Origin: a virus
Taxonomy: Duplodnaviria; Caudoviricetes
DNA length: 57,886 nt
Virus record (IMG/VR): IMGVR_UViG_3300045973_000815
Span: 1-57,886 of that record
Strand: one strand, 5' to 3'
The stretch's first letter is position 1. The number at the start of each line of letters is the position of its first letter. Position numbers and translations under genes: made by a program. The notes under the pieces were generated by a model, which worked only from the letters and a program-made list of their open reading frames with translations, was not told where the DNA came from and did no database searches. This document shows, piece after piece, positions 20,596 through 24,737 of this stretch.

Positions 20596-21852
20596 TTATG
20601 CGCGGACCAACTCGGACTTCCGGCCCGTGAAGGCCTCCCACCGCGCGATGGTGCGCCCGACGTAGACGGGGTCGAGCTCGATGACGCGCGCCTTCCTCCC
20701 CAGGCGCTCGCAGGCCATCAGCGTGGTGCCGCTGCCGCTGAACGGGTCGAAGACCGTGTGGCCGCGCGCGGTCGAGTTGAGGAGCATGGCCTCGACCAAC
20801 TCCACGGGCTTCATCGTCGGGTGGTCATCGCTCCTCTTGGGCTTCGGGAACGAGAACACCGACACCTGCGAGTCGTCACCGTACCAGCCCTTGCCGCCCC
20901 GCCCGATGCGCCCCTCGCCAGGCTTCATCGCGTAGAGAATCGGCTCGTGCTGGAAGTGGTAGTCACTGTGCCCCAGCACCAGCGAGTCCTTGGCCCACAC
21001 GAGGTTTTGCTTGATGCGGAACCCAGCTGCGCGAATCGCATCGATGAAGATCGCGGCATGCCCACCCGCCGGGTGGGCAGCGTAGATGTGGCCGCCCGGC
21101 TTCAGCACGCGGAAGCACTGGGCGAAGGCAGCTGCGAGGAGCGGCGCCAGCTGGTCCTTCCCGTCGTTGTTCACCTTCCCCGCTGCCGACTCATAGCTGA
21201 CGCCATATGGCGGGTCCGTCCAGACGAGGTCAATTCCCCCCCCCAGCAGCACTCGTGCCACCGACTCATCCTTGGTCGAGTCCGCGCATAGGAGTGTGTG
21301 GTCTCCGAGGCGGTACATCGCGCCAGTCGGGACCGCGTCTCCATCCGGAAGCGAGTCAATCTCCGCGAGGCCTTCAGCCGGCTTCGCCAACTCGTTCAGG
21401 ATTCGATCAACGTCGTCCCCATCGAACCCGGTGCCCAGCAGCGCGTCAGGCCCACCATCCGAAGCGATGGACACCAGCAACTGGTTCAACGCGTCGTCGT
21501 CCCACCCGCCGACCTCGACGAGCCGGTTGGACGCGACCAGGTAGGCCTTCGCGTCGGCGTCGTCCTTCGATGCCCACCCGTGGAGGACGGGCACCAGCCA
21601 CTCGCCATCGGCATCCTGCTTCAGGCCCTTCGGCAACCCAGCGCCGTCCTTCTTGAGGGCCGCCAGCGCCTCGATGCGGCCGTGCCCTGCCACCAGCTTC
21701 CCGGTGCGCTCGTCGACCGCCGGGAGTTCGACGAAGCCCCGCTTGCGGATGCTGGTGACGATCTCCCCCAGGTCGTGCTGCTTCGGATTCACGTCAGCGC
21801 GTCGGACGTCAGCCAGGCGCGTGTACTCAATGCGGCGTGGGTCATCGGTCAT
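20596..21852 (-). CDS. ParB-N domain fused to an N6/N4 DNA methyltransferase
   Basis: NPKQH, VAGHGRIEAL; TDPPYG, HPTMKPVELV, DPFSGSGTT. Confidence 0.92.
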   Translation of the reverse strand: MTDDPRRIEYTRLADVRRADVNPKQHDLGEIVTSIRKRGFVELPAVDERTGKLVAGHGRIEALAALKKDGAGLPKGLKQDADGEWLVPVLHGWASKDDADAKAYLVASNRLVEVGGWDDDALNQLLVSIASDGGPDALLGTGFDGDDVDRILNELAKPAEGLAEIDSLPDGDAVPTGAMYRLGDHTLLCADSTKDESVARVLLGGGIDLVWTDPPYGVSYESAAGKVNNDGKDQLAPLLAAAFAQCFRVLKPGGHIYAAHPAGGHAAIFIDAIRAAGFRIKQNLVWAKDSLVLGHSDYHFQHEPILYAMKPGEGRIGRGGKGWYGDDSQVSVFSFPKPKRSDDHPTMKPVELVEAMLLNSTARGHTVFDPFSGSGTTLMACERLGRKARVIELDPVYVGRTIARWEAFTGRKSELVRA

Positions 21853-21872
21853 GGCGGGCACCGTACCGAGGA

Positions 21873-21888
21873 GTGCACGCGTTTGCAC
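21873..21888. promoter_or_regulatory. 16-bp palindromic site between divergent MTase and terS
   Basis: GTGCACGCGTTTGCAC. Confidence 0.75.
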
Positions 21889-21907: not shown

Positions 21908-22462
21908 ATGCCTGCAGGACGACCACCGAAGTTGACGCCTCAACTCCAGAAGGCCTTTTGCGCGCAGCTGGTGAGCGGCTGCACGTACGAGACGGCCGCT
22001 GCCGCCATTGAGGTCAGCAAGAGCGCCATCACTCAGTGGATGGCCAAAGGACGCACGCAAGAGCGCGGAAAATATGCTGATTTTCTGCGCGCAGTCGAAA
22101 AGGCCCGTGCCGAAGTAGTTCAGCGGTTGCTGGCGCGCGCGCAGAAGCGAGTCATGTCGCGAAAGGAGGGCGGCATCGATGCAGACCCGCTGCCCTTGCT
22201 GGCCATCCTCGATCGCTCGTATGCCCCACAAGTTCGCATTCAGGTGGCGACGGAGTTGAGTGCGACGTTGGACCGACTGGAAGCGGAGTTCGCGAATGAG
22301 CCTGAGATCTACGAGCGCATCCTCGCCGCCATCGCTGAAGAGACTGGCCCGGGAGCGGTTGCGCCAGCGTCGCGAGCGCGCACTCACGAAGACGCTCGAG
22401 GTGGTGCGGCCGTGGGCGCCAGAGACGCCGTCGGAGCGACAGAGGACCTTCCTCAGCCTTGA
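21908..22462 (+). CDS. terS: Terminase small subunit
   Basis: MPAGRPPKLTP plus HTH; directly upstream of terL. Confidence 0.8.
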   Translation: MPAGRPPKLTPQLQKAFCAQLVSGCTYETAAAAIEVSKSAITQWMAKGRTQERGKYADFLRAVEKARAEVVQRLLARAQKRVMSRKEGGIDADPLPLLAILDRSYAPQVRIQVATELSATLDRLEAEFANEPEIYERILAAIAEETGPGAVAPASRARTHEDARGGAAVGARDAVGATEDLPQP

Positions 22463-24737
22463 CGCGGAGGAGGTCTTCTTCGGCGGCGCAGCTGGTGGCG
22501 GCAAGTCGAGCGCGCTGTTGCTGGCTGCACTGCAGTACGTCGACGTGCCTGGGTACAGCGCGGGCCTCTTCCGACTGACGAAGTCGGACATGCTGAAGCC
22601 CGACGCGATTCTGGCGCGAGCCAACGCGTGGTTCTCTGGGACGCGCGCGTGGTGGGACGCGGCAGAGCACGCGTGGAAGTTTCCGACAAAGGGCGCGCCT
22701 GCCACCATCCACTTTGGGTACGCCACGTCGCTGGCGGAAGTGACGAAGCGCTACCAGGGCGCGGCCTTCCAATTTTGCGTGGCTACTGGAACGCCGGTGT
22801 TGATGGCGGACAGGACGTGGAAGGCGATCGAGTCCATTGCAGTCGGAGAGTTCGTCTCGACTCTTGAAGGACCTCGACGAGTCCAGCAGTCCTATGCGCT
22901 TGGGGTGAAGCCCGTCGTGCGCGTCACGGGCCCAGTTGGGTCATCGACGGTGAGCGCATCGCACAGGCTTCTTTGTACGAGCGGTGACTGGGCGTCCCCT
23001 TTGGACCTGCGACCCATTGAATCGAGTTCCGCACGCAGCACTCATGAATCGCCCACGCACTCATGCCGAGTACCAGCCCAGATTCCTCCTGGGTCATCGA
23101 TGGGTCTGCCGCCAGTTGGCGAATCTTGGCGAGCACATCGGCCGGAACCTCAGCACCAGGACTGCGACGCTTCTTCAGCAGGTGCTCGAACCGATTCCGA
23201 AGCGTCATGTGGTGAACACCAAGAAACTTCGCTGCCTGAAGCGTGGTTCGCCCATCTAGAGCTCTTCGGACCTGCTCTTCGGTCAGCGGCACAGCGCAGT
23301 TGCGACGAGTATCATCGGCATGCTCTCGCCCGTGGTCCGATAGGGAAGCAAGCAACTCGAGATTCGCAGGGCGGTTGTTTCTGCGATTGCGGTTGCGGTG
23401 ATGAACTATCTCGTGAGGCTCCAGTAGCCGCCCAATCAAGCACTCCATCACCAGCCGATGTTGCTTCACGCCTCCCCATGCATTCGCCATCGGGTGATCC
23501 GGCGAGTACTCAATCACGTACCCGCCAGGGCCAATGCACGCCGATCCACCCCTACACGTCCAGGGAACTCCTGTGCTGCGAGGAGCACCACTCGCACGTC
23601 TGCGAAATGGTCCCAGCGGGTGAGGTGGAAGTCTTCGATCTACGGGTCGAAGGGGCGTCGCATTACGTGACATGGGGAGGGTTCATATCATCCAACTGTG
23701 GCATCGATGAGGTTGGCAGTTGGCAGGAGGCGCCCTACCGCTTCCTCTTCTCGCGACTGCGCCGGCCGCAGGGCATGCCCGTGCCGGTGCGCATGCGTTC
23801 CTCGGGCAACCCGGGCGGTGCAGGGCACCAGTGGGTGAAGCGGCGCTTCGTCGAGTACGCCAAACACGTCGATGCGGGTACGGACGCGCGCGAAGACATC
23901 AAGGCCGCACGTTTCCAGAGGCGGCCGCTACCGGAGCCACCAGTCTACGCTTCGGCGCCCTCGGCGGAGGCTGCAGACGCAGCGCGCTCCATCAACCGCG
24001 AGGCCCAACCCTCATACTTCGTCCCCAGCTTCAAGGAGGACAACGTCGGCCTCGACGTCGACGCGTACGCGATGCAGTTGGCGCGGCTGGACCCCGTCAC
24101 GCGCAAGCAGCTGGACGAAGGCGACTGGGACGCCGCGCACGGCGGCAACTACTTCCAGGCGGGGTGGTTCTCCAACTCCATCGTCGACGTGCCACCCACG
24201 GGGCTGCGCTGGGTGCGTAGCTGGGACTTCGCGGCGACTGAGGAGGAGCCAGGGAAGGACCCCGACTGGACGGTGGGCGCGAAGTGCGCGGTCGAGCGCC
24301 TGGCCGACGGAGAGAAGCGCTTCTGGGTTGCGGACATCGTGCGCTTCCGCAAGGAGCCCGGCGCCACGGAGCGCGAGGTGAAGACGACGGCCGTCCTCGA
24401 TGGGAAGCGCGTCACGGTGTTGATGGAGCAAGAGCCAGGCAGCGCGGGCAAGACGGTGGTGCACGGCATCAAGACGCGCGTCCTCTTCGGGTGGAGCGTG
24501 ACGGGCATGCGCAAGACGGGGCCAAAGGAGTCCTACTGGAAGCCCCTCGCGGCGCCGGCCGAGGCGGGCAACGTGTGCCTCGTGCGCGGGGCTTGGAATG
24601 AGGACTTCATTCGGGAACTGAAGGACCTCCCAGGGGCGCATGATGACCAGGCGGACGCCGTCGCGCAGGCCTTCGCGCACCTCACCGATGAGAAGGCGGC
24701 ACAAGTCGACCGACTGCGGGCGACAGCGAAACTCTGA
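22296..24737 (+). CDS. terL: Terminase large subunit, intein-containing (start uncertain)
   Basis: FGGAAGGGKS Walker A; spliced Walker B FQF|CGIDE; SSGNPGG; nuclease SWDFAAT, DPDWTVG, EQEPGSAGK, HDDQADA. Confidence 0.95.
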   Translation: MSLRSTSASSPPSLKRLARERLRQRRERALTKTLEVVRPWAPETPSERQRTFLSLDAEEVFFGGAAGGGKSSALLLAALQYVDVPGYSAGLFRLTKSDMLKPDAILARANAWFSGTRAWWDAAEHAWKFPTKGAPATIHFGYATSLAEVTKRYQGAAFQFCVATGTPVLMADRTWKAIESIAVGEFVSTLEGPRRVQQSYALGVKPVVRVTGPVGSSTVSASHRLLCTSGDWASPLDLRPIESSSARSTHESPTHSCRVPAQIPPGSSMGLPPVGESWRAHRPEPQHQDCDASSAGARTDSEASCGEHQETSLPEAWFAHLELFGPALRSAAQRSCDEYHRHALARGPIGKQATRDSQGGCFCDCGCGDELSREAPVAAQSSTPSPADVASRLPMHSPSGDPASTQSRTRQGQCTPIHPYTSRELLCCEEHHSHVCEMVPAGEVEVFDLRVEGASHYVTWGGFISSNCGIDEVGSWQEAPYRFLFSRLRRPQGMPVPVRMRSSGNPGGAGHQWVKRRFVEYAKHVDAGTDAREDIKAARFQRRPLPEPPVYASAPSAEAADAARSINREAQPSYFVPSFKEDNVGLDVDAYAMQLARLDPVTRKQLDEGDWDAAHGGNYFQAGWFSNSIVDVPPTGLRWVRSWDFAATEEEPGKDPDWTVGAKCAVERLADGEKRFWVADIVRFRKEPGATEREVKTTAVLDGKRVTVLMEQEPGSAGKTVVHGIKTRVLFGWSVTGMRKTGPKESYWKPLAAPAEAGNVCLVRGAWNEDFIRELKDLPGAHDDQADAVAQAFAHLTDEKAAQVDRLRATAKL
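22776..23696 (+). mobile_element. Intein (307 aa) in terL
   Basis: Block A CVATGTPVLMAD; block B VSASHRLL; block F/G VFDLRVEGASHYVTWGGFISSN followed by Cys+1. Confidence 0.9.
22924..23673 (-). CDS. HNH homing endonuclease with C-terminal HTHs, antisense inside the intein
   Basis: GYVIEYSPDHPMA...QHRLVMECLIGRLLEPHEIVHHRNRNRRNNRPANLELL...DHGREH; HTH TLQAAKFLGVHHMTL. Confidence 0.88.
   Translation of the reverse strand: MSRNATPLRPVDRRLPPHPLGPFRRRASGAPRSTGVPWTCRGGSACIGPGGYVIEYSPDHPMANAWGGVKQHRLVMECLIGRLLEPHEIVHHRNRNRRNNRPANLELLASLSDHGREHADDTRRNCAVPLTEEQVRRALDGRTTLQAAKFLGVHHMTLRNRFEHLLKKRRSPGAEVPADVLAKIRQLAADPSMTQEESGLVLGMSAWAIHECCVRNSIQWVAGPKGTPSHRSYKEACAMRSPSMTQLGP

Follow-up and report, generated by a model that had tools for sequence, protein, structure and literature searches.

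Can one stretch of phage DNA encode, on one strand, an element that splices itself out of a host protein and, on the other strand, the nuclease that moves this element between genomes? The question is raised by the gene for the large terminase subunit (terL) in the IMG/VR virus record IMGVR_UViG_3300045973_000815 (Duplodnaviria; Caudoviricetes), whose positions 1 to 57,886 make up the whole stretch of DNA analysed here (the window; 57,886 nucleotides, to which all coordinates refer unless a locus is named). There, terL is interrupted by an intein, and the opposite strand of the intein carries an open reading frame (ORF) for an HNH endonuclease. The original prediction, made by a model from the letters alone, read this arrangement as a dual-coding element, with splicing provided by one strand and mobility by the other. 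This reading is supported at the sequence level by the HNH match, the open frames, the ratio of non-synonymous to synonymous substitution (dN/dS) and the unfolded linker of the intein, and we consider it probable that the element is a mobile intein whose splicing and homing functions are encoded on opposite strands.

Terminase and intein are both products of the plus strand. The product of the ORF at 22260-24737 (825 residues, intein included) matches PHROG 979, terminase large subunit (E 6.9e-79), and, over residues 654-807, the Pfam family Terminase_6C (E 8.6e-11); its true start may lie a few codons 3' of the first GTG. In alignment with seven intein-less homologues (454-509 residues, 66-78% identical), the closest ones drawn from a collection of 5.8 billion proteins, a 307-residue insertion sits precisely between FQF and CGIDE. 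The homologues read uninterrupted through ...RYQGAAFQF, then C, L, I or V, then GIDE..., and the insertion thus falls in the hydrophobic strand of Walker B, immediately before the acidic pair, which bears out the claim that terL is split at this point by a 307-residue intein. The N-extein (22260-22775) comprises the N-terminal part of the ATPase with the Walker A loop and ends in ...YQGAAFQF, while the C-extein (23697-24737), 61-74% identical to its homologues, contributes Cys+1, the Walker B GIDE, the remaining ATPase and the RNaseH-like nuclease domain, and contains the Terminase_6C match.

Between the two exteins, the intein itself (22776-23696, plus strand) begins with Cys1 and ends in Ser-Asn, followed by Cys+1. 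Its N-terminal Hint lobe (intein residues 1-80; 22776-23015) contains blocks A and B with His63, and shows weak similarity, below the gathering thresholds, to Hom_end_hint (residues 1-51, E 1.5e-4) and Vint (residues 1-80, E 6.7e-3). The C-terminal Hint lobe (residues 256-307; 23541-23696) contains blocks F and G, with Asp288 and the terminal Asn307, and is delimited by invariant columns and aligned C-terminal junctions. Both His63 (block B) and Asp288 (block F) are invariant across 38 aligned inteins. In an AlphaFold model built with this 38-sequence alignment, pLDDT (predicted local distance difference test score) is 92-98 for residues 1-80, 76-98 from residue 261 and 95-98 from residue 271, and the ordered lobes match solved Hint domains in Foldseek (26 chains, E up to 0.001; target template-modelling (TM) score of 0.79 for the NpuDnaB mini-intein). 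By its Cys1, its His63 and Asp288, the Asn-Cys junction, the modelled Hint fold and the in-frame insertion, this is a class-1 intein, for which splicing is predicted. The residues that separate the lobes (intein residues 81-255; 23016-23540) form an open linker, antisense to the HNH core, of which 63% is Ser, Pro, Arg, Cys, Gly, Ala or Thr. The linker has no Pfam or PHROG match, its pLDDT is about 45-55 over residues 81-250 (a short stretch at 151-170 excepted), and neither the family scans nor the model contains a folded endonuclease in the plus frame. The middle of the intein is therefore what it had been taken to be from the letters, an open frame of odd composition with no endonuclease motif.

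A nuclease is encoded on the other strand. The minus-strand ORF at 23673-22924 (249 residues; stop codon 22926-22924) matches HNH_3 (PF13392) at E 4.4e-9, its 36.3 bits exceeding the curated threshold of 24.8, as well as twelve PHROG HNH endonuclease families (best E 4.3e-18). It has 73 homologous clusters, with E down to 8e-100 and up to 65% identity over the full length, most of them 200-260 residues long. When 30 of these HNH sequences are aligned, conservation spans the N-terminal region, the HNH core and both of the modules that follow it; H91, H92, N100, N104, H114 and H118 are invariant, and the catalytic core (HNH residues 71-108; 23350-23463, minus strand), which is delimited by the Pfam match, the alignment and the model, holds the invariant His-His pair and the two Asn. 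We take these His and Asn residues to have catalytic or metal-binding roles. The AlphaFold model of the HNH protein (mean pLDDT 85.9) consists of N-terminal strands, a strand-strand-helix core (strands 89-92 and 105-108, helix 111-126) and two three-helix modules, the last 30 residues or so being poorly defined (pLDDT 48-65). The two modules correspond to predicted helix-turn-helix (HTH) DNA-binding modules at HNH residues 132-161 and 178-215 (23029-23280, minus strand); HTH families are annotated on the homologues, and the match of the window ORF itself to HTH_23 is weak (E 0.035). On sequence and model, then, the minus-strand ORF is an HNH_3 endonuclease with two HTH modules and predicted DNA cleavage, in agreement with the uninterrupted 249-residue HNH protein with two HTH-like segments that had been proposed. 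An earlier start is impossible because an in-frame TGA lies four codons 5' of the ATG. The gene caller behind the protein collection recorded the window HNH as a 188-residue product (P0001) that starts at an internal Met; conservation of the N-terminus in the homologues argues for the 249-residue form. In view of this truncated record, such elements may be under-annotated, and dual-coded loci of this kind are prone to mis-annotation.

The two genes face each other in a defined frame relation. Codon positions 1, 2 and 3 of the intein pair with positions 1, 3 (wobble) and 2 of the HNH gene, which confirms the proposal that HNH wobble positions fall on intein position 2 and that this is not the codon-aligned shadow frame. 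The same relation explains the composition of the linker, as had also been suggested: the linker has 64% G+C at position 2 and, at the third position, 45% against 86% in the C-extein (0.68/0.64/0.45 over the three positions in the linker, 0.69/0.49/0.86 in the C-extein). The DNA is divided between the genes in such a way that the constrained HNH core lies opposite the linker, and only the two ends of the HNH share DNA with the Hint lobes. At one end (22924-23015, minus strand), the poorly conserved and floppy C-terminal tail of the HNH is antisense to Hint block B; at the other (23541-23673, minus strand), HNH residues 1-45, which belong to the conserved N-terminus, are antisense to the Hint C-lobe with block F, and the DNA shared there is limited to these first 45 residues or so. 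Residue mapping marks both overlaps as doubly constrained. About 750 bases are read as protein on both strands, a clean and large natural case in which the two constraints can be separated, as one strand has to preserve a protein sequence and the other only has to stay open. We also observed that G+C is 0.58-0.62 across the intein/HNH cassette (22850-23750) against 0.64-0.70 on either side, and that HNH wobble positions have 64% G+C against 86% at third positions of the C-extein; the low G+C of the cassette and of the HNH wobble fits a foreign origin.

The layout is conserved well beyond the window. A scan of IMG/VR with the HNH alignment returned 216 contigs encoding a relative, of which the best 80 were kept; together with the window, these loci reduce to 65 distinct sequences (window included; G+C 37-64%). 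Pieces of the window intein or exteins match the strand opposite the HNH in 78 of the 80 loci (tblastn), and the intein itself does so in 73, spanning the HNH wherever its match is full-length. All 65 distinct sequences carry a long antisense ORF (479-1819 residues, stop to stop). Of these, 64 have Cys1 and a conserved block A, the remaining one ending at a contig edge; block F is conserved; the last intein residue is Asn in 60 and Gln in five; the +1 residue is Cys, Ser or Thr in every case; and an acidic Walker B pair follows it in all 63 sequences with an insertion at the Walker B site. Intein length across the family is 296-398 residues. The five inteins that end in Gln (L050, L060, L063, L065 and L066) have Ser or Thr at +1. 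In two loci, L077 (3360-4553) and L079 (3609-4547, both on the minus strand of the locus), the antisense HNH lies in a TerL intein at the Walker A P-loop (...RG, then C at the start of the intein; HN at its end, then T or S and GKT...), with the same frame relation and a stop-free intein frame. A genome collection added two convincing loci, on short contigs of metagenome-assembled genomes (MAGs) binned as Verrucomicrobiota and Chlamydiae.

Is the openness of the intein frame a matter of selection or of composition? Both frames are open in all 80 loci and in the two MAG contigs, in line with what the original prediction expected of homologues. Across the HNH ORF, the intein frame is stop-free in 80/80 loci and in the window, and the other two antisense frames contain 2-23 stops. 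As a null model, the synonymous codons within the HNH ORF were permuted 500 times in each of the 65 sequences. The shuffles predict 2.9-15 stops in the intein frame, where none is observed in 65/65; stop-free shuffles make up a fraction of at most 0.034 for any one sequence, and for the window the shuffles contain 5.9 stops on average, none of the 500 being stop-free. Because no stop is observed where the shuffles predict 2.9-15, the openness of the plus frame is selected and is not a by-product of composition.

The same selection is visible in the nuclease protein. In this frame relation, a stop arises in the intein frame where an HNH codon ending in TT, TC or CT is followed by a codon beginning with A, and the only dipeptides that are beyond synonymous rescue are those with Phe first and Ile, Met, Thr, Asn or Lys second. 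These unrescuable dipeptides are absent from the 65 HNH ORFs (0 observed, 75 expected, standard deviation 7.7), and they are strongly depleted in the 73 database homologues, of which the DNA was not seen (2 against 41.6 expected), and in the 35 representatives that head the new entries from a profile search (0 against 30 expected); in the C-exteins of the same loci, used as a control, 206 are observed against 154 expected. The profile search, run against 1.84 billion representatives, yielded some 200 clusters (50% identity; E up to 1e-30), and the depletion fades lower in its list, where the HNH core has other architectures. Codon choice in the HNH gene follows the same rule: in Phe-Ser the Ser codon is solely TCN (43:0), and in Phe-Arg the Arg codon is solely CGN (18:0). 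We conclude from the dipeptide depletion that the need for a translatable TerL has shaped the sequence of the nuclease. The footprint of forbidden dipeptides also offers a simple flag by which nested members can be spotted from protein sequence alone.

Which of the two frames is selected as protein was asked site by site in 20 distinct 345-residue inteins from one subclade, which align without gaps at 70-98.5% nucleotide identity. Diversity peaks at intein codon position 3 over residues 1-40 and again from about residue 301; over residues 46-300 or so, the maximum moves to intein position 2 (HNH wobble) and the minimum lies at position 3, the second position of the HNH codon, the switch falling near the boundary of the overlap between the HNH N-terminus and the Hint C-lobe. 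Calculated by the Nei-Gojobori method, dN/dS in the centre (residues 91-250) is 0.15-0.17 for the HNH frame and about 1.95 for the intein frame, and over residues 251-300 it is 0.08 and about 2.6, respectively; the intein-frame values above 1 are an artefact of overlap, because the synonymous sites of that frame are second positions of the HNH, and a value near 2 means absence of constraint and not positive selection. In the pure Hint flanks, where the HNH frame does not apply, the intein frame has a dN/dS of 0.08-0.12, and in the block B overlap (residues 46-90) dN is low in both frames. In this 20-member subclade, then, the HNH frame is under purifying selection in the centre and the intein frame at the Hint ends, with the minus frame favoured in the middle region just as the original prediction had anticipated. 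Both genes are real, and the DNA they share is under dual constraint.

The distribution of the element is sporadic. The seven closest TerLs (66-78% identical) have no intein, and three IMG/VR loci with 70-74% C-extein identity (L085, L086 and L088) are uninterrupted at the site, while TerLs that do bear the element share only about 27-40% identity with the window over the C-extein and 42-57% over the locally aligned part of the HNH. This pattern fits gain by homing or, alternatively, many losses. The 45 nucleotides upstream of the insertion are identical to L086 and L088 at 40 positions, and the 45 nucleotides downstream (23697-23741) at 29; the downstream divergence could be a homing co-conversion tract or ordinary variation. 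An intein-less TerL that is 72% identical occurs in a Myxococcota MAG, which may hint at the host. In GenBank phages, no relative of the intein region was found, the only matches being of the HNH core to free-standing HNH genes; no phage record there holds a full-length relative, and TerLs of GenBank phages reach no more than 34% identity with that of the window. The plus-frame intein, used as a single-protein query, matched none of the viral contigs, and the family was found via the HNH alignment. On these searches, the element is common in uncultured phages and, as far as searched, absent from GenBank phage records. Contigs of two pond-metagenome DNA runs, one of which may be the source of the record, contained no joint across the intein and nothing further of note, the second run yielding only short fragments.

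A second search, anchored on the Hint N-lobe, returned 80 loci, 31 already known and 49 new. An antisense HNH match lies inside an open ORF of 199-269 residues in 21 of the new loci, two of which, L128 and L130, match only part of the HNH, L128 lacking HNH_3 in the Pfam scan; the HNH is on the same strand in four, and there is no HNH match in the other 24. None of the Hint-anchored loci shows an HNH frame that is visibly broken, and copies decayed past recognition would fall among these 24.

How would such an element work? On the reading that we favour, the plus strand would provide a mini-intein-like Hint domain, split into two lobes (residues 1-80 and about 256-307) and placed in the Walker B motif of TerL. 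TerL would be made as a single 825-residue precursor, from which the Hint domain would excise itself together with the disordered Ser/Ala/Pro/Arg-rich linker of about 175 residues, religating a TerL of 518 residues. The linker would have no function as protein, its DNA being, on the other strand, a distinct and fully nested gene that encodes an HNH_3 enzyme of the I-HmuI kind with two HTH modules, and selection would keep both the sequence of the HNH protein and, on the opposite strand, a stop-free frame for the synthesis of TerL. An antisense transcript would yield the nuclease as a polypeptide of its own. In co-infected cells, this enzyme would cut or nick terL copies that lack the intein, at the conserved sequence coding for Walker B, and the cassette as a whole would be passed on to them when the damage is repaired from the intein-bearing terL. 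In this account we infer that the intein splices, that the nuclease is expressed from the antisense strand, that its cleavage is specific and that the element homes. As to its origin, the element most likely arose when a mini-intein was invaded by a free-standing HNH homing endonuclease gene.

Several observations weigh against this reading. (i) On the side of splicing, block B of the window has Ser in place of the usual Thr, and the penultimate His is absent throughout the family, the consensus end being ...NKN and that of the window ...SSN before the Cys. Both features, a missing penultimate His and a Ser in block B, occur in active inteins. (ii) On the side of selection, overlapping-frame dN/dS is biased, and the HNH of the subclade in which it was calculated is only 34% identical (tblastn) to that of the window. 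(iii) On the side of expression, the sequencing runs that contain this stretch are two DNA runs, with no RNA run listed; no sigma-70-like promoter and no terminator was found in 22300-24300, where the consensus may not be that of the host; and there is no Shine-Dalgarno sequence before the HNH ATG at 23673, while a word resembling one occurs upstream of the presumed HNH start in 25 of the 65 loci, with no consistent signal. (iv) On the side of the nuclease, the top Foldseek match of the HNH model, I-HmuI (PDB 1u3e), is weak (E 0.028, query TM score 0.24), and an HNH profile search of PDB sequences matched no solved structure. (v) On the side of mobility, pairwise identities of HNH and extein are moderately correlated (Spearman 0.39), which is no proof of recent transfer. 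Because this correlation is only moderate and shows no clear recent transfer, we rest mobility on the intein-less close relatives.

Whether the antisense placement is itself an adaptation that uncouples the nuclease from late terminase expression, rather than a frozen accident of invasion, seems to us rather doubtful. If it is, the HNH may come from an antisense promoter of its own that is active early, when target genomes are being replicated; the antisense transcript, or convergent transcription, may damp the terL precursor until the late phase; and the universal frame relation may have been selected because HNH wobble absorbs the requirement for an open intein frame. If true, this would make the imprint of no Phe before Ile, Met, Thr, Asn or Lys a possible sequence-only detector of nested antisense genes.

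Among the explanations that compete with a mobile, two-strand intein, the one that survives best accepts the HNH as real and assigns it to packaging, or to attack on co-infecting phages, and not to homing, the intein being a mere landing pad. Nuclease-mediated exclusion of competitors is known. Terminase-adjacent HNH proteins that assist packaging are also well known, on the account given in the available text of PMC3592412. However, both the intein and the HNH are missing from the closest TerL relatives, so that the HNH is dispensable for packaging by this TerL type, and intein and HNH always occur together, in a single frame relation, across very different TerLs. Packaging HNH proteins, moreover, are small, whereas an HNH_3 enzyme of about 250 residues with two HTH modules resembles homing enzymes of the I-HmuI type. 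We regard a packaging or exclusion role as unlikely.

We find it very unlikely that the family is functional and the window copy an inactive relic, fixed in its lineage and heading to decay. The nearest HNH homologue (P0002) is 65% identical, constraint was measured in a more distant subclade, and neither a Shine-Dalgarno sequence nor a promoter is seen; nevertheless, the full-length ORF is intact and has no forbidden dipeptides or stops, and the residues that are invariant in the 30-sequence alignment are present in the window copy, by construction, as it forms the first row of that alignment. Hardly any weight is left for a fractured gene, that is, for a terL made as two separate trans-splicing halves with a free-standing endonuclease gene in between. 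That arrangement exists for other endonucleases (Dassa et al. 2009, PMC2677866, as cited by Gosselin et al.), and the intein frame ends after 167-178 residues in two loci (L170 and L188); yet separate halves would leave no selection against plus-frame stops, of which there are 0 against 2.9-15 expected in 65/65, the HNH amino acid sequence itself avoids the unrescuable dipeptides, and the 65 distinct sequences, window included, have one continuous ORF each. Finally, a chance shadow ORF of GC-rich DNA that encodes nothing, within a large intein with a degenerate middle, is scarcely credible even in a window region of 58-70% G+C, where long antisense ORFs are common, and with a gene caller that recorded only the 188-residue version (P0001), given an HNH_3 match above gathering, 73 homologous clusters with conserved catalytic residues, an HNH-frame dN/dS of 0.15, a confident fold, a frame other than the codon-aligned shadow frame and the retention of the same ORF in related loci of only 37-48% G+C.

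Other arrangements were seen around this family. Seven Hint-related loci (L138, L150, L176, L178, L179, L180 and L182) have a nested ORF on the same strand as the intein, in the +2 frame, which rests on tblastn for L178, L179, L180 and L182, on Pfam for L150, L138 and L178, and on the ORF only for L176. The same-strand HNH_3 matches are at L178:2031-2732, L150:354-1055 and L138:1006-1641 (Pfam E between 1e-14 and 1e-17), in inteins whose own frame is open, and the host gene of the same-strand +2 HNH was confirmed as TerL for L178 and L150; an HNH that lies on the sense strand but out of frame, within a complete Hint domain, is an arrangement of which we found no published account. In the two loci with a short intein frame (L170:1801-3041 and L188:1801-2999), the stop after 167-178 residues is followed by a +2-frame ORF of 238-314 residues with no Pfam match, and the break may be due to a sequencing error or a frameshift, or may mark a split arrangement. 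Three TerL homologues (P0143, P0175 and P0179; about 40% identity, 746-786 residues) carry LAGLIDADG_3, and in P0143 and P0175, which were aligned, the insertion lies near the Walker A loop. With LAGLIDADG_3 insertions near Walker A in related TerLs, invaders have entered this TerL type at different sites and with nucleases of different types. Just upstream of terL in the window, on the minus strand (20596-21888), there is a 430-residue ORF that presumably encodes a ParB-N-like domain fused to a DNA methyltransferase; its translation contains a DPPY motif.

How does this element compare with the systems already described? Inteins that carry their nuclease in frame house it in the same slot, which lies between Hint blocks B and F, and the same homing cycle is presumed; in contrast, the nuclease of the window is encoded as a separate polypeptide from the other strand, and the residues in the slot are unstructured filler. 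Nucleases outside the intein frame are themselves in print: Gosselin, Arsenault and Gogarten (bioRxiv 10.1101/2025.01.02.630785) report 63 actinophage inteins with non-canonical nucleases, including antisense LAGLIDADG and VSR-like endonucleases in actinobacteriophage inteins, TerL among the hosts, and cite Gorbalenya 1998 and Gogarten 2002 for an antisense LAGLIDADG in the Synechocystis DnaX intein. The novelty implied by the original prediction was, to this extent, overstated, since antisense and out-of-frame homing endonucleases in inteins were already described in that preprint. Its antisense inteins and ours share an opposite-strand nuclease nested between the splicing blocks, an open intein frame and, often, TerL as host, as well as the same proposed origin, the invasion of an intein by a free-standing endonuclease gene. 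They differ in that the nuclease here is HNH_3 with HTH modules, whereas the preprint, in its available text, lists HNH only as an in-frame domain, and in that the element belongs to a large family (216 viral contigs) from uncultured environmental phages and not from actinophages. To the extent that the available texts cover them, antisense-endonuclease inteins have so far been LAGLIDADG or VSR-like, and the nuclease of the window is neither. Our literature search found no paper on an antisense HNH within an intein, although the supplementary tables of Gosselin et al. could list further architectures; PMC6669764, checked as a candidate precedent, proved irrelevant.

Other known systems share single features with the element. 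(i) The dnaX intein of cyanobacteria, whose LAGLIDADG endonuclease is out of frame (Phillips, DeSimone and Gogarten, bioRxiv 10.64898/2026.09.14.751524), resembles it, as far as the available text goes, in the low dN/dS of the nuclease frame, the inflation of the intein frame through lost synonymous change, the sporadic distribution and the model of secondary invasion; nuclease family, host gene and organisms all differ, its nuclease frame is called '+2ORF', and the words HNH, antisense and terminase do not occur in that text. (ii) The ShiLan domain, an HNH hidden out of frame in the gene of a mycobacteriophage DNA methylase (Arsenault et al. 2025, PMC11855218), is likewise an HNH gene nested in another gene whose frame stays open, and its core is related to ours (one HNH of the family, L017, matches those methylase loci with 38.9% identity over residues 16-110); by the available account, however, ShiLan lies on the same strand as its host gene and has no detectable splicing domain, whereas the HNH of the window is antisense and inside a complete Hint domain. 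(iii) Walker B is a known intein site of TerL in mycobacteriophages (TerL1-e; Kelley et al. 2016, PMC5050341), in a TerL type that differs from that of the window, and the available text of that paper, in which the words 'opposite', 'reverse' and 'free-standing' do not occur, mentions no opposite-strand nuclease. (iv) I-HmuI (PDB 1u3e) is, like the predicted nuclease, an elongated HNH and helix-turn-helix enzyme, the structural match being weak, and it is encoded by a phage group I intron, whereas the HNH of the window is nested in an intein. Taken together, these comparisons indicate that the antisense HNH_3 version is apparently new, and that the overall design, in print since 1998 and extended in 2025-2026, involves no new principle. 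Our findings support the view of intein origins in which splicing came first and the nuclease invaded later, and they extend nested endonuclease genes in inteins beyond a few actinophage and cyanobacterial cases to a large family in uncultured phages.

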